DNA from: an uncultured virus (IMG/VR IMGVR_UViG_3300046537_000053)
Taxonomy: Duplodnaviria; Heunggongvirae; Uroviricota; Caudoviricetes; Schitoviridae
IMG/VR virus record: IMGVR_UViG_3300046537_000053
Length of the DNA: 20,000 nt
Strand: one strand, 5' to 3'
This document shows positions 1 to 19,891 of this stretch, piece by piece; within the stretch, counting starts at the first letter, position 1, and each line of letters opens with the position of its first letter. The position numbers were made by a program, and so were the translations under genes. Under the pieces are notes generated by a model, which saw only the letters and a program-made list of their open reading frames with translations, did no database searches and had not been told where the DNA came from.

Positions 1-839
1 AAGCCGATCAGGTTCACGCCCCAGTCGAGCGCGTAGAACGGCAGCTCATTCTGGTGAACGCTGATCCTTGGCTCGTCTTCGAACAGGGCAGCAAACAACT
101 TCCGGAGCCAGAGCGAACCGGTGAGATCGTGGTTACCCTCCATCACCAGCAGCACGACCTGCTCATGCTTTTGCAGAGCCAGGTTGACCAGTTGACGGAT
201 CAGCCGGATCGCGACGTCGACCACCTTGCTGAAGCGGCCGTCCGCATCAAGCACATGGCCTGAAGTCGGGGTGATTGGCAGCAGGCCGTCGAAGTGTAAA
301 AAATCACCCCCGATATTTATCACCGCGGTGTGGCTGGCTGGTGAGGAATTCACCAGGGACTGCATCGAGGCAACGCCGACTTCTTCGGCGATCCTCAGGT
401 CCCAGTCGGCGCCGCCTTCCTTATGCCAGGCCAGCATTCCGACGTGGTAGTCGAAAAAGTTGTACAGAGTCAGCAGCTTGGCCAGGACATGGGTCGGTGC
501 ATCGATCGGCCGGACCGGGTCGACAGTGGCACACATTGCGGCGATCGCAGCCTCGAGCTGGATCTGCCGGGCTTCATCGTCGGGGGACTGGCGTTCCCAG
601 GTCCGCTCGATGTCACCGTCCGAGTTGCGCTGGACCGTGACCTTGCCCATCAAGTAACCGGGCGCCACACCGTTGTCGAAATGTCCGGGTGCCAGACCCA
701 GTCTGGCTTTGTGTTCAGGGGTGAGAGCGGCCTCGGCCATCTCTTCTTTCAATCGGCCGCGGAAGGTGCTGTCGGCAATTCCTAATGCCTTGGCTGCTCC
801 GCGCTTACTGCCATGCGTCTTCCACGCTTCATGATACAT
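1..839 (-). CDS. N-terminal HTH + calcineurin-like metallophosphoesterase domain protein (3' end truncated by window edge)
   Basis: Not in the ORF track; translated by hand from ATG at 839: MYHEAWKTHGSKRGAAKALGIADSTFRGRL (HTH-like)...FFDYHVGMLAW...NIGGDFLHFD...MEGNHD. The DxH, GD and GNHD motifs are those of metallophosphoesterases. GGGGAGGGA SD lies upstream, and the frame is open to the window start. Confidence 0.8.
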   Translation of the reverse strand, partial: MYHEAWKTHGSKRGAAKALGIADSTFRGRLKEEMAEAALTPEHKARLGLAPGHFDNGVAPGYLMGKVTVQRNSDGDIERTWERQSPDDEARQIQLEAAIAAMCATVDPVRPIDAPTHVLAKLLTLYNFFDYHVGMLAWHKEGGADWDLRIAEEVGVASMQSLVNSSPASHTAVINIGGDFLHFDGLLPITPTSGHVLDADGRFSKVVDVAIRLIRQLVNLALQKHEQVVLLVMEGNHDLTGSLWLRKLFAALFEDEPRISVHQNELPFYALDWGVNLIG

Positions 840-898
840 GTGTACTGTCCCTCCCCAGGGCTGATAGAGTTAACTTTTGTGGAACTGCTCCTAAATTT

Positions 899-1915
899 TT
901 AGAATGCTAACAGCATGTTGCCGGACGAAGGCACGGCCACTGTGTAAGTAATGATCAGGGCGCCCTGGGCACCTGACGTTGGAAAGTTGCCAGTCGTGAC
1001 TGAGCCGCAACCGCCAGCGCCACCACCCGCACCGTAAAGGCCTGGAGCACCGGCACCTCGGCCAGTGCCCGAACCGGACAGACCACCGCCGCCACCAGCG
1101 CCGCCGCCTGCACCTGCAGTACCGCCCGCTGTGATCGTATATTCATCACCATCGCCGCCCGCACCACCAGTCGAGTCCTGGGTCGAGCCGCCAAAGCCAC
1201 CGCCACCGCCTGAGCCGGACGTGCCATCGCCAGCTGTACCGTTGGCGTCGGGATCACCCGTACCGCCTGCAGCCCCAGCCCGACCGGTACCACCGGCACC
1301 GCCCGTTGCACCCGGGGCAGCATTGCCACCTCCGGAGACACCACCACCGCCACCGCCTCCTCGGCCATTGGATGATGCAGCATTACCGCCCACTCCACCG
1401 GTGCCAGCGGCACTACCGGCCGCACCGCCACCTGCAGCACCACCCAGGTTGCTACCCGAGCGGGCACCGCCATCACCGCCGCTGAATTTGGTAGTGCCGA
1501 CACTGGCTGAGGCCTGACCGCCGACACCACCCAAGGTCGACGTCGGGGCGCCGGCACCTTTGGCCATCACACCATCAGCGGTCGAGCCAGGAGCTGCGTT
1601 CGAAGTCTTGTTGAGCCAGGTGTCAGCGCCAGCTGAACCTTGGGCACCAGCACCGGTTGCAGCGAAGCCGCCCGCTCCGACCCAGGTATAGAGAGTGCTG
1701 GATCCCGGCGTCAGACCAGAGACCGACAGGCTGACTGAAGCGAACGCACCGCCACCGCCACCCGTGACATTGGTAGTGGACGTTGCTGCAGGACGTGAAC
1801 CGCCCGAACCACCACCGATTGCCACGACATCGATCGGGACCGAGGTGTCGCAGTCAGCCGGCAACGTCCAGGTATGGGCCCCGGTCGTGCTGAGCAGGAC
1901 GGTCTTGGTCGCCAA
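899..1915 (-). CDS. Glycine-rich tail-associated/virion protein
   Basis: 338 aa with a TTG start 3 nt after the tail-fibre stop. It has 'DVVAIGGGSGG', many GGxGG tracts and C-terminal 'GAQGALIITY', typical of phage Gly-rich domains found next to tail fibres. Confidence 0.7.
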   Translation of the reverse strand: MATKTVLLSTTGAHTWTLPADCDTSVPIDVVAIGGGSGGSRPAATSTTNVTGGGGGAFASVSLSVSGLTPGSSTLYTWVGAGGFAATGAGAQGSAGADTWLNKTSNAAPGSTADGVMAKGAGAPTSTLGGVGGQASASVGTTKFSGGDGGARSGSNLGGAAGGGAAGSAAGTGGVGGNAASSNGRGGGGGGGVSGGGNAAPGATGGAGGTGRAGAAGGTGDPDANGTAGDGTSGSGGGGGFGGSTQDSTGGAGGDGDEYTITAGGTAGAGGGAGGGGGLSGSGTGRGAGAPGLYGAGGGAGGCGSVTTGNFPTSGAQGALIITYTVAVPSSGNMLLAF

Positions 1916-1918
1916 GAG

Positions 1919-3619
1919 CTAGACTTCCTGGCTCACACCGACAACATCCCATTTGGTGTCGGCATTGTTGAAAATCATGCCCAGATACAACCACTTACCG
2001 TTGACGGTTGCGGTCGGCAGGGTCACTCCGATTGCCCGGTACTGCGAGCCATAGCTGATCGCATAGGCGCCATTGGCCTTGATCCGGACGATGATCTTGT
2101 GGCAATCGATGGCCGTGCCGGTCGGATTGTTGAGCGTCGGAGCGGCAGTAACCGCACCGTTGTTGACCATGTTGTCGGAGAAAGTCGGCGTGATCGAGTT
2201 GGCGCCGGCTGCCTGGATATCCGGGGACCGGTTCTGTTTCAGATCTAGGGCTGCCTGCTGAGCGGTCGACACCGGCTTGGCAGTATCGGCGGTATTGTCG
2301 ACACTGCCCAGTCCGACGTCCGCCTTGACGAAGCTCATTGCCGTCTTCAGGCCCGAGGCCGAGATTGCACCCGACAGGCCGGCGACCGAGCTCACCGTTT
2401 CGGTGTTGTCGATCTTGTCCCAGCTGGCGCCATTGGAGACGATCCAGTCACCGACCGCCCACTCGGCAATGCCCGAGATGCTGGTCGTGCCCGCGGTGGC
2501 GACTTTGTAGAAGTAGCCCTTGTTGCCCGCAGCGGCAGCCGGGATGGCTGGCGAGTTGGCCGTGGCGTCCCAGGTTCCCTGGTACACCATTGCTCCGACC
2601 ACCAGGCCTTCGAGGGCAACGATTTTATCGTAGATGTCGTTCTTGGTCGGGACTTCGTTCGATCCGTTCCAACCGGGACCATAGGCTTCTGCTGAAACGA
2701 TTATGTCGGTTGCGGTGATGCTGCCAAAGACCGACAGACCGGTTGCAGTGAATGTCGCCCAAAAAGCCTCAGTGTCGTAGTCTATGATCGAGAATTCGCC
2801 AGTGACTGCAGAATAGAAGGCGCTGGGTGTTGATACGAACGCCGCGTATTCGGTGCCGCCAGATTGGAACCCGCTGTAACCTCCCGTCATGGAGAAGCCA
2901 GTGGCCGTGATATAGCCGTCAATCGTTTGGTCGCCGACGAAGCTGTTGCCTCCAGCCAGTAGAGCCTTGGCATCGAGCGTAGCCTGCAGACCGGTGACAC
3001 CGGCAACGGCGATCGCCGGGATCTGGCCAATCGGGATCTTGGTACCCGAGTCCAAGGTGGCGACACCGTCAGCCACGCCGCGGTCAGTGTTGGGGACAAA
3101 GTCACCCCCGACAATCGCTTCGGCATCCGCAGCAGCAGCTTCCGCTGCAGCCTGGGCCGCTAGAGCTGCAACCTTGGCTGCATTGGCATCAGTAGCCTGG
3201 GTTGCGGCAGATGTTGCAGATCCGGCCGCAGCAGTGGCAGATCCTGCGGCAGCGGTAGCAGAAGCAGCTGCAGCGGCGACAGAGCCAGAGACAGAGGCAA
3301 CAACGACGGCAGCTGCGGCTTCCACTGCTGCGGTGACATTCCCGGACGCCTCCGCCGCTTCGACCGCTGAGGCTGCCGCTGCAGCCGCTGACGCGGCTGC
3401 TGCTGCCTCGGCCGCCTCGGCGTCGGCTATACCGGAGGCAACCGTCGCGGCGACCTCGCTCAGTTCAGGAAGATTTTCAAGTCCATCGGCAACCAGCACG
3501 ACATCGTCGATATTCTCAGCAACGATCCGCACGTTGGCATAGACCGGGCCGATCTGGTCGTTGGCGAACTCAGCTCCCGAGTCTTCACCCGGGATCTCTG
3601 CAGATGGCTTGATACCCAT
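1919..3619 (-). CDS. Tail fibre / receptor-binding protein
   Basis: 566 aa with an Ala-rich coiled-coil N-terminal third. Fibre-type motifs include GVATLDSGTKIP, YQGTWDATANSP...WAVGDWIV, VSSVAGLSG and KADVGLGSVDNTADTAKPVS. It lies downstream of gp67 as in N4-like phages. Confidence 0.75.
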   Translation of the reverse strand: MGIKPSAEIPGEDSGAEFANDQIGPVYANVRIVAENIDDVVLVADGLENLPELSEVAATVASGIADAEAAEAAAAASAAAAAASAVEAAEASGNVTAAVEAAAAVVVASVSGSVAAAAASATAAAGSATAAAGSATSAATQATDANAAKVAALAAQAAAEAAAADAEAIVGGDFVPNTDRGVADGVATLDSGTKIPIGQIPAIAVAGVTGLQATLDAKALLAGGNSFVGDQTIDGYITATGFSMTGGYSGFQSGGTEYAAFVSTPSAFYSAVTGEFSIIDYDTEAFWATFTATGLSVFGSITATDIIVSAEAYGPGWNGSNEVPTKNDIYDKIVALEGLVVGAMVYQGTWDATANSPAIPAAAAGNKGYFYKVATAGTTSISGIAEWAVGDWIVSNGASWDKIDNTETVSSVAGLSGAISASGLKTAMSFVKADVGLGSVDNTADTAKPVSTAQQAALDLKQNRSPDIQAAGANSITPTFSDNMVNNGAVTAAPTLNNPTGTAIDCHKIIVRIKANGAYAISYGSQYRAIGVTLPTATVNGKWLYLGMIFNNADTKWDVVGVSQEV

Positions 3620-4332
3620 TAACAGAACCCCCGGTCATTGAATTTCTTGCTGGTCTCCGACAGGCTGGTCGAGACCAGGTCCTGGTCGACTGCCTCGTTG
3701 CAGATGCTGGTATAGATCGACAGGTAATCGCTCGATTTCAGCGTGTTTTCCTGGCCGTTCATGTAGAAATAGACCTTGTGCCCGATGTAGGCGATCAGTG
3801 CCTCCTCGAGGACCTCGGGCAGATCGATGTCGGCATCCAGGTAGCCCTCACCCTCGAGCGCGAGGGGAGCGTGCTTCGCCTGGTAGATAATATAGAGCGG
3901 CGCCCCGTCCTCAGGATCGGGCACCTGCAGCAGGTCATAGGTCGGCGTGAACAGCGAGTTGGAGGCGTTGTCGTCGTTGAGCGGCGCCTGGGCTCCACCG
4001 GTCTGATAGACGCCGAGCACCTTGATCAGGTCATCGGTGAACGGCTTGGTCACCGAGTCGATGATGTAATGCGGCAGCGTCGGGTTGGCCGCGGCATTCA
4101 CCAGGCTGTACTTGCTGTCCAGCTTGTAGTTGGTGATCGTGCCGGCCTGCTCGATGATCACCTCAGCTTCTTTGAGGTTGAACTTCGAATAAAGCTTGAG
4201 CAGGCACTCGTTGGCGAAGCCGATCACTGCCGGATGCTTGGTCTCGACAATCGTGCCGTCGCCATCATTCGACATGCTCAAATTGGCCAGCGGGCCATAG
4301 GACAACCGCTGCAGAAGCTGCGTTACGTTCAT
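3619..4332 (-). CDS. N4 gp67-like virion structural (head-tail adaptor-like) protein
   Basis: 237 aa immediately downstream of the terminase, matching N4 gp68-gp67 synteny. Motifs LSYGPLANL, DDLIKVL, YQAKH and DLPEVLEEAL resemble this family. Confidence 0.75.
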   Translation of the reverse strand: MNVTQLLQRLSYGPLANLSMSNDGDGTIVETKHPAVIGFANECLLKLYSKFNLKEAEVIIEQAGTITNYKLDSKYSLVNAAANPTLPHYIIDSVTKPFTDDLIKVLGVYQTGGAQAPLNDDNASNSLFTPTYDLLQVPDPEDGAPLYIIYQAKHAPLALEGEGYLDADIDLPEVLEEALIAYIGHKVYFYMNGQENTLKSSDYLSIYTSICNEAVDQDLVSTSLSETSKKFNDRGFC

Positions 4333-4368
4333 CTATTCCCCACCCAACCCGGTCAGAGTTGAACTAAC

Positions 4369-5964
4369 TCACACTATATATGATGTCAGTCCGCTCGGAT
4401 CGCTTATACCATGATCATCTCCCCATCGGTCTATATCTTCTTTCACGACAGGGATAGAGTCGGATGGCCGCCAGGCCGTCAGGAACGCCAGCATCGACAC
4501 GGTATCGAGGAAGTCGTCCTTGCCCTTGAGCCCCCGGGTGGTGGCCTGCCGGATCTGGGCCAGCCCCAATCCCATGATGGTCGACGACTTCATCTCCTCC
4601 GGCCAGTAGATCTTGCCCATCTTGAACCAGGGCACGACCATATTGAACCGGCTGAGCTTGTCGACGGTCGGCCGAATGCCGGGGGTCGCCGACTTGGTGA
4701 CCGGGTCATGGGCGAGGTTGAACCAGATGTTCCGGTTCAGCATCTCCTGCTGGATCCACTTGATGAAGGCGCCCTGCTGACCGGTGATCTCGACGCCCAC
4801 CTGCTGCGGCTTGTACTGCTGAGCCAGGCGGAACAGGTCATCGATCGACTTATCCATCGTCTGGCGGGCGAGGATCCCGTCGACCCAGTACCAGTCGCCG
4901 TTGGCATTATAGGCCCACACCGAGATGGCGCTGAAGTCGGCCGTCTGCTTCTCGCTCGTGGCGAAGTCGGTCGTGATATAGAAGTTGAACAGTGACTGGT
5001 TGTTGAGCAGCTGTTGCCGGCTGTAATACTTGATCTCGGTTTCCTGGACGAGCCGCTCTTCCTCGGACGTGATCCGGAGCATCAGCTCCTGGAAGAAGGC
5101 GGCGCCGTGCCCGGTCTCGACCGCGAGGTCGTACTGGCTTTTGACATAGGTGTAGGTGAAGCGGTCGGGCCAGGCGCCGCGGAACTCGGCCTCCTCGCAC
5201 GGGAAGCGTTCGCACACCGGCCAGACGTTGACGTCCCACTGGCCCGACTCGATTGCCTCGATCAGGATGTCGTCGGCGTTGAACGGCGTGCCGTTGAAGA
5301 TCACCTTGCGACGGGTCGGATCGAGCGCGTGGTTGACACCTTTATATACGGTGTCCTTGATCGCGATCATCGCGGCCTTGGATTTGCTGTCGTCATCGCT
5401 GACCAGATCGTCGAGCACCGCCAGGGGCGGACGCTTGCCGAAGATCTTGGTACCGCGGAGACCGGTCTTGGCACCGAACATCTTCAGGCCGAACCGCTTG
5501 CCCTCGATGTTGGTGAACTCGATATAGTTGTCGGTGAAGGTCGCCTTGGGGACCCACTGCTGCAGGAACGGCGAGTTGTTGTAGCGGAACTCCATGTTCT
5601 TGCGGAGCGATTTGACGCCGTTCTCCATGGTGTCGCCGACATAGATGGCGGCATCGATCTCCCCGAACCCGGGGATGTAGCAGAAGGTCGCGAGGAACAG
5701 GAAAAAATACTCGGCGAACAGCGTGGTCTTGGCCGCGCCGCGGAAGCAGAGGTTGGCGATGTACTCGGACGGTCCCACCACCTTGTCGAGCATGGCGAGG
5801 TGGACAGGCGGAGTTTTATGCGACTCACCCTCCGCTCCGTTCACCAATTTGATAAAATTCATGAAGGTGAGTGCGAACTGAGTCGGCACATACGTTCCGT
5901 CGTTCAACGCAACATAGGATACCGTGTTCAGCCACTCGTCGAGAGATTGCTTAATCTTCGCCAT
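4369..5964 (-). CDS. terL: Terminase large subunit (N4 gp68-like)
   Basis: Walker A-like FRGAAKTT, Walker B LAVLDDL, coupling motif FNGTPF, RNase H-like nuclease motif ITTDFATS and C-terminal KDDFLDTVSML. Start moved to ATG 5964 (MAKIKQSLDEW), which has a GAGGA SD. Confidence 0.93.
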   Translation of the reverse strand: MAKIKQSLDEWLNTVSYVALNDGTYVPTQFALTFMNFIKLVNGAEGESHKTPPVHLAMLDKVVGPSEYIANLCFRGAAKTTLFAEYFFLFLATFCYIPGFGEIDAAIYVGDTMENGVKSLRKNMEFRYNNSPFLQQWVPKATFTDNYIEFTNIEGKRFGLKMFGAKTGLRGTKIFGKRPPLAVLDDLVSDDDSKSKAAMIAIKDTVYKGVNHALDPTRRKVIFNGTPFNADDILIEAIESGQWDVNVWPVCERFPCEEAEFRGAWPDRFTYTYVKSQYDLAVETGHGAAFFQELMLRITSEEERLVQETEIKYYSRQQLLNNQSLFNFYITTDFATSEKQTADFSAISVWAYNANGDWYWVDGILARQTMDKSIDDLFRLAQQYKPQQVGVEITGQQGAFIKWIQQEMLNRNIWFNLAHDPVTKSATPGIRPTVDKLSRFNMVVPWFKMGKIYWPEEMKSSTIMGLGLAQIRQATTRGLKGKDDFLDTVSMLAFLTAWRPSDSIPVVKEDIDRWGDDHGISDPSGLTSYIV

Positions 5965-6694
5965 TATCGTCCTCAACCCTTGTAGCTGTCGCTTCAATCA
6001 AGGGTTGAGCTGCAATGTCCACAACTTTCACCCCACCCTGCATTGCTTCTAATTGTTTTTCTGACAATGCAACCAACATACTCTTCAACTCAGTCATACC
6101 TGAGTCTTCCTTAACTTCCAGACTGAGCTGGAAGTTTCCTTCTTTGGGCTTGGCCAGATGCGTCAAGATAGAGTTGGCCGCCTCACAGCGGACCTTCTCT
6201 GACAGTGCGTTCCGCATCAGGTCGACCTGCGTATTGATCGCTTCCTGGAAGGCGCCGTGGTTCAGCACCCAGCTCGGCACCAGGCTTTGCTCGGTGATCA
6301 GGTTGACCAGCTTGCCCTTGTTGTAGGCGCTGACGTAGGCGCTGATATCCTTCTGGCTGGTGCCCAGCTGGACCAGCCGTTGGTGCCGGGCAGGGAAGGT
6401 CCGGAGGTAGCTCTCCTCGTTGTTGTACCCCATCAGCTTGTAGCTGACGTAGGTGATCGCGTTGAGGTAATCCTCGAGCTTGAACTTGCCGTCCTTGAGG
6501 ACCGAGGCGTAGCTGACCACGTTGTTGCGGATCTGCTCGGCCAGGATCGGATCGCTGACCAGGTTGTTGACCTGGTCGACAAACGCCTGGTTGATCTGGC
6601 CCTTGAACTGGGGTGGCACCGCCTGCCGCACCTTCTCGACCGTCAGCGGGTCGGGTGCGTTCTGGATCCCCGGTAGATTAGCAGTCAGTGTCAT
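5951..6694 (-). CDS. N4 gp69-like protein (putative terminase small subunit)
   Basis: Directly upstream of terL and overlapping it. Motifs YLNAITYVSYKLMG, YVSAYNKGKLVN and SEKVRCEAANSILTHL resemble gp69. The likely start is ATG 6694 after GGTGGGGAAA. Confidence 0.75.
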   Translation of the reverse strand: MTLTANLPGIQNAPDPLTVEKVRQAVPPQFKGQINQAFVDQVNNLVSDPILAEQIRNNVVSYASVLKDGKFKLEDYLNAITYVSYKLMGYNNEESYLRTFPARHQRLVQLGTSQKDISAYVSAYNKGKLVNLITEQSLVPSWVLNHGAFQEAINTQVDLMRNALSEKVRCEAANSILTHLAKPKEGNFQLSLEVKEDSGMTELKSMLVALSEKQLEAMQGGVKVVDIAAQPLIEATATRVEDDNGED

Positions 6695-6831: not shown

Positions 6832-7140
6832 TTAGACCAGGATCAGCCAGTCCTCCATCAGCAGGTCACTTTGGCTGGCTACCCACGGCACCACATCCTG
6901 GTCGACGGTGAACATGGCGATGTAGGGCCGATAGGGCACCAGCCCGTCGATGTGGCCCTGGGCAATCAGCTTGCCAGTCTCGGTGGTCGGCGGATAACGG
7001 CCCTCGCCCACCAGGTAGAGGAACATATTCTTGCCGTTCCAACCGCGGCGGAGGATCCGCTTGCCGGCCTTCAGGGCCTCGAGGGCCTCACTGAAACAGA
7101 AGGTAATGACCCTGGGTTCTTCGAAATTGGTCGCTCGCAT
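6832..7140 (-). CDS. DUF2829 family protein, Tad2-like (Thoeris anti-defence sponge)
   Basis: FSEALEALKAGKRILRRGWNGKNMFLYL...PWVASQSDLLMEDW is the DUF2829 signature. ATG 7140 has better SD spacing than GTG 7149. Confidence 0.8.
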   Translation of the reverse strand: MRATNFEEPRVITFCFSEALEALKAGKRILRRGWNGKNMFLYLVGEGRYPPTTETGKLIAQGHIDGLVPYRPYIAMFTVDQDVVPWVASQSDLLMEDWLILV

Positions 7141-7217
7141 TGGTTTCACTCCCCACCATATTAGATCTATATTTGTAGGGAGTCGGCGTCAGCCGACCCC
7201 CGAAATTTTTTCGACCC

Positions 7218-7787
7218 CTATTTCCCCAGGGCCTCCTGGAATTCGGATTTGACCGGCTGTTCGGCCGGTTCTTCCTCAAACTTAGCTAGGATAGCGTCGA
7301 CATCGGCCGGCCGCAGGGCTTCGGCGTTGCCGAGCCCATGCGCCGTCAGCCTGGTCAGGGCCTCATCGAGGTCGTCTTCCCCGATCGTTGCGGCGACATG
7401 CAACTTATCCCGCAGGGAATAACCGAGCAGCGGCCAGATCTTGTTGACGGCGTCCTGTCGGGCAACCCGTTCGCCGATCGAACGGCTGAAGTTCGACGGG
7501 CTGGCACAGGCACTGGTGCCCACAACCGTGTAGCCATTCTTGAGGACCAGGACGCAAAAGGTCAGCAGCCGGAGCTCGTCCGGCAGGCTCAGCGTCTGGC
7601 TGAGGTTCTCGATCACGCCAAGCTCAGCTGCATCGTCAAGCAGCCCGAGGCGGGCGCCCTGGTGAGCAGTGAAGTAATGTTCGCTGGTGATATGGGCCTC
7701 GATCACCTCCGGGGTGATCCGCGGGCCGTTGTTGGGATAATCGGTCCGGTCGACACTAACGATGGGGCCATTTGACATGCTGCTCAT
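7218..7787 (-). CDS. Phage Gp49/Sf6 gp66 family protein (Acb4-like sponge) with C-terminal extension
   Basis: ITPEVIEAHI...LLTFCVLVLKNGYTVVGTSACASPSNFSRSIGERVARQDAVNKIWPLLGY matches the Gp49_66 family. About 60 extra acidic/helical residues follow. Confidence 0.8.
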   Translation of the reverse strand: MSSMSNGPIVSVDRTDYPNNGPRITPEVIEAHITSEHYFTAHQGARLGLLDDAAELGVIENLSQTLSLPDELRLLTFCVLVLKNGYTVVGTSACASPSNFSRSIGERVARQDAVNKIWPLLGYSLRDKLHVAATIGEDDLDEALTRLTAHGLGNAEALRPADVDAILAKFEEEPAEQPVKSEFQEALGK

Positions 7788-8009
7788 ATTCCCTTTATCT
7801 AGCCACCTGCAATCGGGTGGGGCCCTTAGTATTTAGGGTATTTATCGCCGAAAGCCAACTGCGTCGGGGACGGCAGGCCATTTCTTCTCAATTTACTAGA
7901 GAAGAGAAAGGACCCTCCTATTGTCTGCTGTGTCCTAAAGAACACAACCAGACCAGGAGAAACTGGGGATAAATCCCACAGCATTTGACAGATATGTAAC
8001 ACTATGAGA

Positions 8010-8176
8010 GCTTGGCTCTGGGCGGTAACGCCTGCCAAGCGTGATGCGGGGCCAGACACCCTAGTCGCTTAGTGGGGACAATAACGGCGACGGGAGTTGC
8101 GGGATTTCCTTTGGCTCAGCGATGAGCCTAAACTCGACGAACTCTAGGGCCCGGGTCGCAAGATCCGGGCTCTTTT
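8010..8176 (+). ncRNA. Candidate structured ncRNA 1 (three GNRA-capped stems, terminator-ended)
   Basis: GCTTGGC/GCCAAGC encloses GGGCG-GTAA-CGCCT. Further stems are GTCGCT/GGCGAC, GGCTCA-GCGA-TGAGCC, CCCTAG/CTAGGG and GGGCCCGGGTC-GCAA-GATCCGGGCTC followed by TTTT. No credible ORF covers the region. Confidence 0.5.
8147..8176 (+). terminator. Intrinsic terminator ending candidate ncRNA 1
   Basis: 11-bp GC-rich stem, GCAA loop, followed by TTTT. Confidence 0.6.
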
Positions 8177-8230
8177 ACTTATGTCGGCTGAGCCACATAA
8201 GAAAAAAGTTCCACAGATGAAAAATATCTA

Positions 8231-8258
8231 TTGACCTGTTCAGGGTTTACGATAGGTT
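8231..8258 (+). promoter_or_regulatory. Possible promoter (TTGACC-16 nt-TAGGTT) upstream of candidate ncRNA 2
   Basis: Sigma70-like -35/-10 pair after an A-rich tract; it also contains GACCTG...TTTA, reminiscent of N4 middle promoters. Confidence 0.35.
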
Positions 8259-8264
8259 TGGAGC

Positions 8265-8441
8265 CAGAGGGAGAGAGCGGGGTCTTCGCGCTGAAGCATC
8301 GATCGAACTCTTATTTGGGTGGGGAGGGAATAAGCTAGAACTATCGCTCAGGTTTGCCCCTTATCCTGGCCGGTCGCTTTAGCTTATTCTTCCCCACCTC
8401 AAACTTATCTGCATATAAGCCGCTTTTCAGCGGCATTTTTT
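8265..8441 (+). ncRNA. Candidate structured ncRNA 2 (long hairpin + terminator)
   Basis: TTTGGGTGGGGAGGGAATAAGCTAGA (8314-8339) pairs nearly fully with TTTAGCTTATTCTTCCCCACCTCAAA (8378-8403). It lies between a putative promoter and a terminator. The 5' end is approximate. Confidence 0.4.
8419..8441 (+). terminator. Intrinsic terminator
   Basis: GCCGCT-TTTC-AGCGGC followed by ATTTTTT. Confidence 0.65.
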
Positions 8442-8615
8442 GTGCCTGCCGGCAAGGCGTTGGTGTGTCACCAAGATAGTACACCGCAGTACGATTTGAC
8501 CCTCTAGCTAGGTACGGCTGTAGGGTATTGGGGGTCACTACCCCCGTAAACTAAACCACCCCCCCGGGTGATTAACACATAAACACTTGACCCTACCCCA
8601 GGGTCTTAACACGTC

Positions 8616-8626
8616 GCGCTACGCGC
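8616..8626 (+). promoter_or_regulatory. Virion RNA polymerase hairpin promoter copy 1
   Basis: GCGCTACGCGC; the template strand folds as GCGC-GTA-GCGC (C-GNA-G triloop as in N4 early promoters). Intergenic, upstream of the first early gene. Confidence 0.8.
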
Positions 8627-8659
8627 TCAGGAGTATTACTCCAACCTAAGGAGCCTATC

Positions 8660-8977
8660 ATGGCTACTGCTCGTATTGCACTGGACTCTGTCCTTGGCAC
8701 GGTCCAGAAGACCGCAAATACCTTCACCAATGTCATCGGCACTGTCGATGCTGGTGTCTCTATGCTCAACAGCTTCGTTGAGCGTCACTCCACGCAACAG
8801 CGTGACAAGAACCTTGTGGAACTCAAGGTCTCCCGTATTCGACTCGTCGAAGACACATCCCTGCAAATCGCCGAACGGCGTGCAGAGATCAAAGCTCGCC
8901 TTAAAGATGAAGGCTTCGCCAAAATCTACGAGGCAGCATATACCGAAATCAATGAGCTCTTCACCCCAGCGGGGTGA
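8660..8977 (+). CDS. First early gene, N4 gp1-like protein
   Basis: 105 aa with AAGGAG SD, first ORF after hairpin promoter 1. Size, position and N-terminal amphipathic helix resemble N4-like gp1. Confidence 0.6.
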   Translation: MATARIALDSVLGTVQKTANTFTNVIGTVDAGVSMLNSFVERHSTQQRDKNLVELKVSRIRLVEDTSLQIAERRAEIKARLKDEGFAKIYEAAYTEINELFTPAG

Positions 8978-9094: not shown

Positions 9095-9105
9095 GCGCTA
9101 CGCGC
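9095..9105 (+). promoter_or_regulatory. Virion RNA polymerase hairpin promoter copy 2
   Basis: Exact GCGCTACGCGC, intergenic; shares downstream GGAGTATT with copy 1. Confidence 0.8.
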
Positions 9106-10205: not shown

Positions 10206-10216
10206 GCGCTACGCGC
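10206..10216 (+). promoter_or_regulatory. Virion RNA polymerase hairpin promoter copy 3
   Basis: Exact GCGCTACGCGC; GG at 10222-10223 is +1/+2 if the loop centre is -11, as in N4. Confidence 0.8.
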
Positions 10217-13561: not shown

Positions 13562-13572
13562 GCGCTACGCGC
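13562..13572 (+). promoter_or_regulatory. Virion RNA polymerase hairpin promoter copy 4
   Basis: Exact GCGCTACGCGC in a 43-nt intergenic gap; GG at 13578-13579 is +1/+2. Confidence 0.8.
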
Positions 13573-16616: not shown

Positions 16617-17507
16617 ATGCAACAGCGTGTCACCGTGGCGCCGGCACCCCCGGCGACCATCGATCATTTCGTCGATGGCTCGAATTATGTGAAGAAGCAG
16701 CATCAGCGTGAGCTCGAGCTGCTCTATTCGAAGAACCAGACGCTATCGCGGATCCGCAAGGAATTCACCGATTGCCAACAGTTCAACTTTGAGGCCTATC
16801 TCGAGCATCACCAGATCCCGGTCGACTTCGGCCTGGACGTGATGGTCCAGATGGCCCTCCACAAGCGTACCACCTTCCCTACCCTGGCCGGGATCCTGCG
16901 TCGTCATTATGACGGCTACGCCAATCCCAGCCAGCTCACGGCCAACATGTTGGAGCACTGCGTCAAAGCCCGGATCGTGATCTGGGATCCAACAACGGAG
17001 CAGTTCATCGTGATGTTCAACATCACCGACGAAGTGCAACGGGACCTCGACCGGTACCAGTATCCGCTGCCGATGGTCGTGCCACCGCTTCGAGTGATGG
17101 ACAATCGGGACACCGGTTACTTCACCCATCGCTCGAGCATCCTTCTCCGCAAGAACCACCATGACGACGATGTCTGCCTCGATCACATCAACCGGGTCAA
17201 CCGGATCCCGTTCGTGATCAACTACGACACCGCCCACATGATCAGTGGTGCCTGGCGGAACCTAGACAGACCCAAGCCTGGGGAAACCCAGGCCGATTAC
17301 GACAAACGGGTGAAGGCATTCGAGAAATACGATGCTTCATCCAAAGACGTGATCGCCAAACTGCTTGCTTATGGCAACGAGTTCTACTTAACTCATCGCT
17401 ACGACAAGCGCGGGAGGGTGTATTGTCAGGGATATCACGTCAACTACCAGGGTGCGCCCTGGAACAAGGCCGTCATCGAGCTCGCCAACAAGGAGTTCGT
17501 TGAGTGA
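16617..17507 (+). CDS. N4-type RNA polymerase II subunit 1 (gp15-like, N-terminal half of T7-like RNAP)
   Basis: YQYPLPMVVPP, KNHHDDDVCLDHIN and the DxRGR motif in HRYDKRGRVYCQGYHVNYQG; TAAGGA SD. Confidence 0.9.
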   Translation: MQQRVTVAPAPPATIDHFVDGSNYVKKQHQRELELLYSKNQTLSRIRKEFTDCQQFNFEAYLEHHQIPVDFGLDVMVQMALHKRTTFPTLAGILRRHYDGYANPSQLTANMLEHCVKARIVIWDPTTEQFIVMFNITDEVQRDLDRYQYPLPMVVPPLRVMDNRDTGYFTHRSSILLRKNHHDDDVCLDHINRVNRIPFVINYDTAHMISGAWRNLDRPKPGETQADYDKRVKAFEKYDASSKDVIAKLLAYGNEFYLTHRYDKRGRVYCQGYHVNYQGAPWNKAVIELANKEFVE

Positions 17508-18594: not shown

Positions 18595-18731
18595 AAATTC
18601 GCTGGTTCTATGGCTTCCTCGTCAAAGAGGAGGACAGCCTCCGCAAAGCGAGGGACCGCCTCATCGATCAACTTTCAAGGAACTCGCCATGCAAACCTTC
18701 ACCGGACGCGAATATCTCAAAATTGATATAG
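18591..18731 (+). CDS. Possible 46-aa protein
   Basis: ATGA overlap with the previous gene (MKIRWFYGFLVKEEDSLRK...); overlaps the RNAP2 start. Confidence 0.35.
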   Translation: MKIRWFYGFLVKEEDSLRKARDRLIDQLSRNSPCKPSPDANISKLI

Positions 18732-19891
18732 CCAACAACTTCGGGCTGGATAAGCTCGACTGGGACGACCGCATCGCCTGGTACGACCAGAACGAGAGCA
18801 ACCTGCCGACAATGGTCCAGCAGGCCAAGGAGCCGGCGCTATTCTATGCCGGCTGTAAGGCCATGGCCGACGTCCAGGCTGAGCGCCCGATCGGCTATAT
18901 GATCAGCCTCGACGCTACATCTAGCGGCATTCAGTTATTGGCTGCTCTGACCGGCGATCCCTACGCTGCAGCTCTCTGCAACGTGGTCGACACCGGCCAG
19001 CGTGAAGACGCCTACATCAGCATCTACCAGGCCATGCTGAACCAGGTGCAGGACAAGTCCAAGCTGACCCGGGAACAGACCAAGGACGCCATCATGACCG
19101 CCTTCTATTCATCGAAGGCAGTCCCCAAGCGTATGTTTGGGGAAGGCGCCCTGCTCGACCTGTTCTACGACACGCTGCGGACGATGGCTCCCGGCGCCTG
19201 GGAACTCAATGAGGCCATGCTGGCCTTCTGGAACCCCGACGCCTACGAGCATCATTGGATCCTGCCCGACAACTTCCATGTCCACATCAAGGTCATGGAT
19301 CAGGTCAAGGACCATGTGCTGTTCTTCGGCCAGCCGTTCGACGTTTACTATCACGTCAACCGGCCAGTCGAAGAAGGCCGATCGCTCGGCGCCAACACCA
19401 TCCATTCCATCGATGGCATGATCGTCCGGGAAATGACCCGGCGCTGCATGTACAATCCTGAAAAGGTCGATGGTCTCTACAAGCTGCTGGCCGAAGGGAA
19501 CTACGGCAATGCCGGAGACTCCCCGGCCGACGCCAAGGAGGTGACCAAGCTGTGGGATCATTATGTCCGGACCGGTTATCTATCGGCCCGGATCATCGAT
19601 CATCTCGATGAGAATACCCTCAGCCTGGTCAACGGCCACGACATTAAGCAGCTGCTCGACAGTCTGCCGTTCAAGCCGTTCGAGATCATCACCATCCACG
19701 ACTGCTTCCGGGTCCTGCCGCATTATGGCAACGACCTCCGGGAGCAATACAACCTGCAGCTCCAGCTGCTGGCCAAGTCGAACTTGCTGCAGGATATCAT
19801 CTCGCAGCTGATCGGCCGGCCGATTACCCTCAACAAGCTGGATCCCCAGCTGTGGAAGAGGATCGGGCAAACCAACTACGCCCTGTCCTAA
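18689..19891 (+). CDS. N4-type RNA polymerase II subunit 2 (gp16-like, catalytic half)
   Basis: YLKIDIANNFGLDK; motif A SLDATSSGIQ; motif B REQTKDAIMTAFY; ANTIHSIDG; motif C IHDCF. Confidence 0.92.
   Translation: MQTFTGREYLKIDIANNFGLDKLDWDDRIAWYDQNESNLPTMVQQAKEPALFYAGCKAMADVQAERPIGYMISLDATSSGIQLLAALTGDPYAAALCNVVDTGQREDAYISIYQAMLNQVQDKSKLTREQTKDAIMTAFYSSKAVPKRMFGEGALLDLFYDTLRTMAPGAWELNEAMLAFWNPDAYEHHWILPDNFHVHIKVMDQVKDHVLFFGQPFDVYYHVNRPVEEGRSLGANTIHSIDGMIVREMTRRCMYNPEKVDGLYKLLAEGNYGNAGDSPADAKEVTKLWDHYVRTGYLSARIIDHLDENTLSLVNGHDIKQLLDSLPFKPFEIITIHDCFRVLPHYGNDLREQYNLQLQLLAKSNLLQDIISQLIGRPITLNKLDPQLWKRIGQTNYALS

Follow-up and report, generated by a model that had tools for sequence, protein, structure and literature searches.

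A conserved plus-strand structured RNA between the late and early genes of an N4-like phage is a member of a large phage RNA family missing from Rfam

We conclude with high confidence that positions 8010-8176 of the window (the whole stretch of 20,000 nt that was analyzed, itself part of a 38-kb viral contig) encode a real and conserved structured RNA on the plus strand, and we find that this RNA belongs to a large phage RNA family missing from Rfam 15. The family comprises 86 distinct relatives in our collection, and its conserved core, as judged by comparing their sequences, corresponds to 8058-8144 of the window, where it consists of a pseudoknot strand and the helices P2, P3 and P4. An earlier, sequence-only reading of this DNA had proposed an undescribed structured RNA of the plus strand, and that proposal holds: no Rfam 15 family matches it and we found no description of the family in the literature.

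The phage is N4-like. Its late genes occupy the minus strand up to 7787 and include the large terminase (4369-5997), a Tad2-like (Thoeris anti-defence 2) gene recognized by a Pfam domain match (6832-7149, E 2.6e-24) and an N4 gp49-family gene (7218-7787), while its early genes run along the plus strand from 8660 onward and the two subunits of an N4-type RNA polymerase II are found at 16617-17507 and 18689-19891. The element is inside the gap of 870 nt that separates these two divergent blocks. A plus-strand hairpin, GCGC-TAC-GCGC, occurs in four exact copies (8616-8626, 9095-9105, 10206-10216 and 13562-13572) that are probably the early promoters used by the virion RNA polymerase of the phage. 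According to portions of PMC4496689 and PMC9163698, such promoters in N4-like phages have a short stem of 4-7 bp and a loop of 3 nt, and transcription starts 11-14 nt downstream; because the four copies fit this description, the first early promoter would come about 440 nt after the element. In a relative, L009, CGGC-TAC-GCCG or a similar hairpin is present three times at matching places and at a matching distance from its terminase gene.

The same gap holds other features. Positions 8225-8445, 3′ of the element, form a second structured unit on the plus strand (fold z -4.03) which ends in its own terminator (8419-8434), located before the first GCGC-TAC-GCGC hairpin. The long hairpin of this unit (8313-8400) is kept with compensatory changes in L023, its tip (8333-8394) is swapped for 79 other letters in a strain variant, and the unit may be another small RNA. 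It is between the late and early blocks that N4-like phages are expected to have their physical genome ends. The motif CCACCCCCCCGGGTGAT at 8557-8575, about 45 nt 5′ of the first early promoter, has similar words (ACCCCCCCGGTAT) at the matching place in L009 and in phage Arace01, and it could be a terminal or entry signal. Another IMG/VR contig (L007) is 100% identical to window positions 1-6042 and stops at precisely that point, which is 45 nt upstream of the start of the terminase gene; assembly may have broken there, or this may be a physical end. In phage LUZ7 the 660-bp terminal repeat (record positions 1-660) contains ORF01, and part of PMC9163698 reports that gp01, described there as without known function, and Drc together account for up to 90% of LUZ7 early transcripts.

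Folding of the element favors the plus strand. The minimum free energy of 8010-8176 on this strand is -80.3 kcal/mol, against -62.9 +/- 4.1 for shuffled sequences (n=200; z -4.24), with none of the 200 shuffles as good, whereas the minus strand gives z -1.29 with 17 of 200 shuffles as good. Strandedness had earlier been argued from G-U pairs, and indeed G8155-U8164 and G8148-U8171 in the terminator stem are compatible with the plus strand only, as are the G-U pairs of P2, which occur as both GU and UG types in the family alignments. The three GNRA-capped stems of the sequence-only reading are all present on the plus strand, namely GGGCG-GUAA-CGCCU (8020-8033, within a longer hairpin at 8011-8041), GGCUCA-GCGA-UGAGCC (8113-8128) and a 12-bp stem with a GCAA loop followed by UUUU (8146-8173), the last of which the terminator scan reports, as anticipated, as the end of the unit. 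Two further details of that reading were borne out: CTAGGG (8144-8149), the complement of CCCTAG at 8059-8064, overlaps the base of the terminator at 8146-8149, and the U-tract can alternatively pair with an A-tract, the arms being 8173-8184 and 8195-8206 (12 nt, 92% complementary). A perfect 9-nt pairing of 8112-8120 with 8187-8195 was rejected because a variant described below, X7, alters the first arm with no change listed in the second.

The element has neither a coding frame nor a tRNA. No plus-strand ORF of at least 40 aa covers 8010-8176, and a minus-strand ORF (7826-8059, 77 aa, GTG start) reaches the 5′ part of the element only. ARAGORN found 0 tRNA or tmRNA genes in the window and there was no Rfam tRNA match, in agreement with the earlier statement that the structure is not a cloverleaf.

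Relatives were not reached by ordinary similarity searches. Distant-mode blastn of 7780-8660 against 50,697 phage records returned no match, an exact 27-mer was absent from viral contigs, the first early ORF used as a protein query gave 26 pattern matches with 0 confirmed, and blastn of the intergenic region against relatives found via neighboring proteins gave nothing at E < 0.01. Homology was first recognized by eye in L009 (terminase identity 73%), which has ACCCTAG, GTGGGGA and AATAAC in common with the window. A word-pattern search yielded 6 clear relatives among 22 viral-contig matches, 10 among 13 metagenome matches and 2 strong ones among 9 bacterial-genome matches. A small covariance model, R1, with 14 seed sequences including the window, defines the family as ACCCYAG, then a P2 of 4-6 bp enclosing GUGGGG(A/C)n(1-3)A(A/U)UAAC. 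The window fits this definition with 53.8 bits (E 1e-11), a score that is partly by construction because the window is one of the 14 seeds, and members outside the seed (L080, L075, HN04, L011, Arace01, L015 and HK022) score 22-44 bits. The model found ACCCCAG and GUGGGGC variants in the further N4-like contigs L011 and L015, and according to it two cultured phages also have the element, HN04 of Burkholderia (38 bits) and Arace01 of Pseudomonas (22.7 bits). A strict pattern for the ACCCCAG variant matches at least 120 IMG/VR stretches.

In all, 98 loci were screened, and the removal of seven whose P2 could not be paired, one that was too short, and exact duplicates gave the 86 distinct sequences. 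These span N4-like contigs, HN04, Arace01, many non-N4 viral contigs, coliphage HK022 and matching E. coli prophages, and two bacterial genomes. The HK022 copy is at record positions 39766-39801 (E 2.8e-4), and 818 of 5,426 complete E. coli genomes contain at least 80% of a 301-nt HK022 stretch around it; RefSeq annotates no RNA at the HK022-like prophage copy in E. coli. No convincing copy was seen in E. coli K-12, which has one partial 22-bit R1 match outside prophages, and no convincing R1 match came from N4 (best E 0.17), LUZ7, phiEaP8, Axy13 or RHph_X2_28B. The bacterial copies are in an Alteromonas genome (L082) and a Motiliproteus metagenome-assembled genome; a search of 150 other genomes of the Alteromonas order produced no match, placing the element in 1 of 151.

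The members have in common the strand ACCCYAG, a hairpin, P2, that covaries and whose loop, GUGGGG(A/C)nAAUAAC, is nearly invariant, and a helix in two parts, P3. In the window the conserved 5′ strand ACCCUAG is at 8058-8064 and P2 at 8064-8091, with arms 8064-8069/8086-8091 and a loop made of GUGGGGA (8072-8078), a variable base (8079) and AAUAAC (8080-8085). For 14 sequences, 94.3% of P2 cells are paired, compared with 64.6% in shuffled controls, with 22 double-change cells and 0 of 500 shuffles as high; the values are 96.7% against 72.6% for 24 distinct sequences, and 95.3% of cells are paired for 43 sequences. Shifting the P2 partner by 1-3 columns reduces pairing to 27-59% in the 14- and 24-sequence sets. 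On mixed alignments RNAalifold recovered nothing but P2. Its fold for one subgroup has GUGGGG paired with CCACCGC in place of P2, a solution we rejected because the other subgroups have no such partner and P2 covaries family-wide.

The loop of P2 may also take part in a pseudoknot. CCCUA (8059-8063) is able to pair with UGGGG (8073-8077), a helix we call PK1, and CCCUAG could alternatively pair with CUAGGG at 8144-8149. All five PK1 pairs are possible in 43 of 43 aligned members, the variable pair being C-G in 33 and U-G in 10, although, as these columns are invariant and were partly fixed by the search patterns, the count expresses compatibility and not covariation. From this we infer the CCCYA:UGGGG pseudoknot.

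P3 begins 1-3 nt after P2 in the family. In the window it spans 8094-8144, with an outer helix at 8094-8098/8140-8144 and an inner one at 8100-8103/8133-8136 assigned by inspection, like those of L023 and L026; the two are separated by an internal loop of G8099 against ACG (8137-8139), and the whole encloses a pyrimidine tract (8104-8112) and P4. When 43 sequences were aligned with MAFFT on sequence alone, the outer P3 helix was 74% paired, with five of six pairs changed on both sides, a pairing figure that is biased upward because these 43 of the 86 were picked with enrichment for members showing the P3 form. An unselected test of the form compared the 14 nt after P2 with the next 95 nt in each member; per-sequence P values of a duplex-energy version were uninformative and the form of the duplex was scored instead. 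The best duplex was a helix, a 2-3-nt 3′ bulge and a second helix in 46 of 86 members, as opposed to 121 of 2,580 shuffles (4.7%; binomial P about 6e-38), and the bulge, which adjoins a G-U pair, is GA in 39 of the 46. In this test the window does not take the bulged form: it, L023 and L026 have by inspection an internal loop there (G/ACG or CA/GGAA). The collection of homologues and the search for covariation, both proposed at the outset as checks on the element, gave 86 distinct relatives, with covariation of P2 and of the outer P3 helix in the aligned sets.

A CUCC- or UCCU-type tract and a small hairpin are enclosed by P3 in almost all members. In the window this hairpin is P4, GGCUCA-GCGA-UGAGCC (8113-8128), and elsewhere it is, for instance, GGAC-GCAA-GUCC (L023), UCUC-GCAA-GAGA (L011) or GGAGC-UUG-CUCC (L026). 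In many members from non-N4 sources an additional module follows P3, consisting of CGGAC(A/U)G and a short hairpin with a GAAAGAC-type loop, as in the HK022 copy (L205, 19840-19880), L095, L128, L164, L075 and L080, and others have GACCC-ACGUCAC-GGGUC; the window is without such a module.

Strain variants, obtained from the DNA contigs of runs X6-X8, give independent support for the fold, as P4 and the terminator stem are both kept through paired changes. A variant on a DNA contig, X7, differs from the window at 14 positions and by 3 gaps over 8059-8210. Within its P4, A8118-U8123 has become G-C, and positions 8116 and 8126 are lost together so that C8115-G8126 and U8116-A8125 are replaced by one G-U pair, meaning that a 5-bp stem is retained; other differences are at the variable loop base 8079 and at 8092, both non-conserved. 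The intrinsic terminator (8146-8176; 12-bp stem, GCAA loop at 8158-8161, UUUU) has in a strain variant G8153-C8166 replaced by A-U, and the changes C to U at 8170 and U to C at 8171 both leave their positions paired.

The 5′ hairpin behaves differently from the core. This hairpin (8011-8041, GUAA loop, inner stem 8020-8024/8029-8033, from sequence and fold) is absent from a close variant in DNA run X8, in which 7975-8041, that is, the candidate promoter together with the GUAA hairpin, is exchanged for 90 unrelated letters while 8042-8109 has 2 differing positions only. The GUAA hairpin is, accordingly, a replaceable module, and other family members have unrelated hairpins or none in its place. 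Comparison of the members identifies both the GUAA hairpin and the GCAA loop of the terminator as lineage-specific. The architecture first proposed, three GNRA loops around a junction, is not that of the family, and the reading that proposed it had not singled out the conserved core at 8058-8144.

A related claim, that a CCCTAG/CTAGGG helix closes a junction, survives in part: the helix is real in the window and is not family-wide, a partner after P3 being present in some members only. Similar partners (GAGGGU, UUGGGC and AAGGGA) overlap the terminator base in L044, L045, L037 and L035, which with the window, where the four bottom bases of the terminator stem overlap CUAGGG, makes five members from three subgroups in which the complement of ACCCUAG does so. 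Members with ACCCUAG have AGGG after P3, and the ACCCCAG members L011, L015, L075 and L080 have GGGG(G), while in HN04, Arace01 and L088 nothing after P3 can partner ACCCYAG. In a permutation test for distal pairing, a member's own CCAG-plus-P2-arm strand ranked in the best 10% of partners for its own downstream region in 16 of 84 members, against 8.4 expected (P 0.009), with a median rank of 0.51, and the test is weakly positive overall. It is possible that the element is a switch.

How might this RNA be transcribed? Our own scan found a candidate sigma-70-type promoter on the plus strand (7985-8013) with a perfect -35, TTGACA (7985-7990), a 17-nt spacer, TG at 8005-8006 and a weak -10, GAGCTT (8008-8013), which has 2 of 6 consensus bases and is overlapped by the 5′ arm of the GUAA hairpin; its score is under the 9-of-12 cut-off of the terminator/promoter scan. 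The sequence TTGACAGATAT of this region is retained in a strain variant, and a transcript start near 8020 is predicted. Better sigma-70-like promoters are found 44-64 nt upstream of ACCC in L031 (TTCACA-17-TATAAT), L023 (TTGACG-16-TATCCT) and HN04 (TTGCAA-17-TACACT), and also in L026, and about half of the first 20 members have terminators 90-200 nt after ACCC (by scan, and by eye in L045, L048 and L015). The unit in this phage appears self-contained, being composed of a candidate sigma-70-like promoter, a putative RNA of about 155 nt and a terminator. A soil metatranscriptome (RNA-library run X9) contains one 252-nt contig of a close variant that covers 7798-7974, between the late-gene start and the element, and is then unlike the window, the core being outside it; its strand is not readable and it may be carried-over DNA.

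In N4-like genomes the element is always between the late and early blocks and oriented towards the early genes. Of five N4-like contigs searched, four contain the large terminase gene, and in all four the element lies 1.8-2.6 kb upstream of it in divergent orientation; HN04 and Arace01 have the element in the same position and orientation relative to that gene. The HN04 element ends about 25 nt before a tRNA-Asn gene, so that a tRNA and not an ORF follows, which agrees with the earlier remark that the element sits where N4-like phages often carry tRNAs. Same-strand tRNA genes were found within 450 nt at 4 of 60 further loci, L090, L111 and L158 have tRNAs downstream, and tRNA neighbors amount to about 5 of the roughly 80 loci examined.

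Outside the N4-like phages the neighbors are diverse on both sides. Upstream are genes for a RecE-like exonuclease, a helicase, a single-strand DNA-binding protein, a Rha-like regulator, an HNH endonuclease or a spanin, and downstream are those for small terminase, head proteins, HNH endonuclease, exonuclease, ribonucleotide reductase, or CsrA-like and DksA-like proteins. A Shine-Dalgarno sequence and ORF start follow on the same strand in 63 of 83 members, versus 32 of 83 in the opposite-strand control, and the ORF start is no more than 150 nt from ACCC in 22 of the 83, a pattern typical of cis-regulatory leaders. In nine members (L041, L048, L052, L051, L088, L102, L105, L126 and L140) an ORF starts 20-40 nt after the terminator or P3 itself; no downstream ORF occurs within 480 nt of the element in the window. 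In an E. coli prophage identical to HK022 the copy is intergenic, with lysis genes on one side and HNH/terminase genes on the other. The bacterial copies are among hypothetical genes, near DndF/DndG in one case and a WYL regulator in the other. That of Alteromonas (at about 7957 of L082) is 3.5 kb from the DndF/DndG restriction genes (1540-4462) and directly upstream of a gene for a 443-aa protein with a weak UDG-superfamily match; no clear common family was found among the neighbor proteins of the two copies.

As for identity, a search of the 20-kb window with the 4227 models of Rfam 15 gave 0 matches at gathering score, which is the outcome of the Rfam check that had been called for. At E up to 10, region 7700-8750 has three sub-threshold matches only, none on the core (best E 0.41-0.53), of which one, on the terminator, scores 16.6 bits against a gathering score of 37. 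A search of 20 other members at E up to 0.1 produced nothing except one neighboring tRNA. The downstream genes are diverse, whereas riboswitches are placed upstream of genes of related function, and 0 copies of GCGC-TAC-GCGC are inside 8010-8176, unlike the case of an N4-type hairpin promoter. Four 15-nt motif strings are absent from seven searchable supplement files of PMC10690425 (Fremin et al., 2023), and the family may still be among the 10,006 unnamed candidates of that study.

What, then, does the RNA do? We give roughly even chances to the reading that, in this phage, it acts as a free, trans-acting small RNA. Host RNA polymerase would start at the sigma-70-like promoter (TTGACA, 7985-7990) near 8020, and the transcript would fold into a variable 5′ hairpin and the conserved core, comprising the ACCCUAG strand, P2 with its loop GUGGGGAcAAUAAC pairing back to CCCUA as a pseudoknot, and a P3 enclosing the UUUCCUUU tract and hairpin P4. 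Transcription would stop at the terminator (8146-8176) to leave an RNA of about 155 nt, and, as a guess, the invariant pseudoknot loop and the exposed CUCC-type tract of this free RNA might be where a conserved partner is bound, be it a protein, RNA polymerase or the ribosome/Shine-Dalgarno sequences. Signs that it stands alone are the lack of a covering plus-strand ORF of at least 40 aa, the position of the first early promoter (8616) beyond the second terminator, and the diversity of the neighbors on both sides. Against a free RNA, the -10 is weak, many members are directly upstream of an ORF, the pseudoknot is on invariant columns only, and, in the manner of a switch, the complement of ACCCUAG lies over the base of the terminator in the window, L044, L045, L037 and L035. 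A possibility to which we give less credence is that the element is a cis-acting leader in which the nascent RNA decides whether the terminator stops transcription or whether the next gene is translated. With CCCUAG held in the pseudoknot the terminator could form, and with CCCUAG free it could pair with CUAGGG and weaken the terminator; or the leader could be a protein- or polymerase-binding antiterminator of the HK022 put kind. The order promoter, element, terminator, genes recurs, with ORFs 20-40 nt after the terminator or P3 in the nine members listed above, and the two contexts, a terminator or a nearby Shine-Dalgarno sequence, resemble two kinds of riboswitch expression platform. Same-strand downstream ORFs (63/83 vs 32/83), the overlap of the ACCCUAG complement with the bottom pairs of the terminator in five members of three subgroups, the presence after P3 of AGGG in ACCCUAG members and of GGGG(G) in the ACCCCAG members L011, L015, L075 and L080, the excess of own distal partners (16/84 vs 8.4, P 0.009) and the resemblance of the CUCC tract to an anti-Shine-Dalgarno sequence all speak for a leader. 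However, in the window nothing translatable follows for 480 nt and the early genes have their own hairpin promoters, tRNAs are downstream in HN04, L090, L111 and L158, the alternative-helix signal is weak (median rank 0.51), L088, HN04 and Arace01 lack an ACCCYAG partner after P3, and the downstream genes have no common function, which argues against a metabolite sensor.

We consider it unlikely that the element is a ribozyme that cleaves itself, or a signal for RNA processing by which transcripts are separated where modules meet. The invariant unpaired nucleotides, the putative pseudoknot and the conserved GA bulge adjoining a G-U pair would suit such a function, as would the location at lysis or replication/packaging module boundaries and beside tRNAs, but no Rfam ribozyme matched the window at E up to 10 or the 20 other members at E up to 0.1. 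Least probable, and largely refuted, is that the region is a DNA-level signal (for packaging or a terminal repeat, an origin, or a hairpin promoter of a phage polymerase) or a chance array of G+C-rich hairpins and a terminator. Its position between the late and early blocks, where the ends of N4-like genomes are expected, would suit a signal of this kind, and N4-like polymerases do use DNA hairpin promoters, as set out in portions of PMC4496689 and PMC9163698. Yet both the G-U/U-G pairs and the folding asymmetry fit an RNA of one strand, the hairpin promoters described in that part of PMC9163698 have 3-nt loops, the phage has its own GCGC-TAC-GCGC set elsewhere in the window, unrelated phages have the element within their operons, and the HK022 copy is far from cos. 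Chance is excluded by covariation in three helices.

The family is far more widespread than a single N4-like window suggested, with three covarying helices and about 25 near-invariant bases, and such conservation usually marks a riboswitch, a ribozyme or an RNA that binds a specific protein or machine. In N4-like phages the element would add a transcription unit of host-polymerase type upstream of the first virion-polymerase promoter. We tentatively suggest, as a speculation that we hold with less than even confidence, a new class of phage regulatory RNA, whose invariant pseudoknot core would recognize, by sensing or binding, something that many hosts have in common (RNA polymerase, the ribosome, a nucleotide signal or a defence protein) and so set read-through or translation at module boundaries or disarm defence. 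If this were true, the rare bacterial copies in defence-island-like regions would be either the target system's own RNA or captured decoys. As HK022 and E. coli K-12 are a standard laboratory system, the function is directly testable.

Several known systems invite comparison. Riboswitches of the preQ1-I-like H-type pseudoknot kind have an A-rich third loop. The element would resemble them in having a short G-C-rich stem, CCCYA:UGGGG, interleaved with P2 and followed by the A-rich strand AAUAAC, and an intrinsic terminator or Shine-Dalgarno sequence often comes after it; it differs in having no Rfam match, a first pseudoknot strand that leads straight into P2, a core that at about 90 nt includes the additional bulged P3 and hairpin P4, and downstream genes that are mutually unrelated. 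GOLLD, ROOL and the small stable RNAs of T4 are stable phage RNAs beside tRNA genes, of unknown function. Like them the element is phage-borne, highly structured, sometimes tRNA-adjacent and scattered across unrelated phages, but it is much smaller (core about 90 nt), does not match the GOLLD or ROOL models of Rfam and has few tRNA neighbors. With the promoters of N4-type virion RNA polymerases it shares the presence of hairpins in the left part of an N4-like genome, although those promoters are described in portions of PMC4496689 and PMC9163698 as DNA hairpins with a 4-7-bp stem and a 3-nt loop, whereas the loops of the element are of 4 or 16-18 nt. Moreover, every GCGC-TAC-GCGC copy of this phage is downstream of the element. 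A member of the family is found in HK022 itself, and this copy comes after the lysis genes and before the HNH/terminase genes, unlike the put sites, which are elsewhere. The put RNAs of HK022 are cis-acting antiterminator transcripts, as described in part of PMC9378689, and the element resembles them as a phage RNA element between a promoter and terminators, a likeness that would explain why genes of any kind can be found downstream of it.
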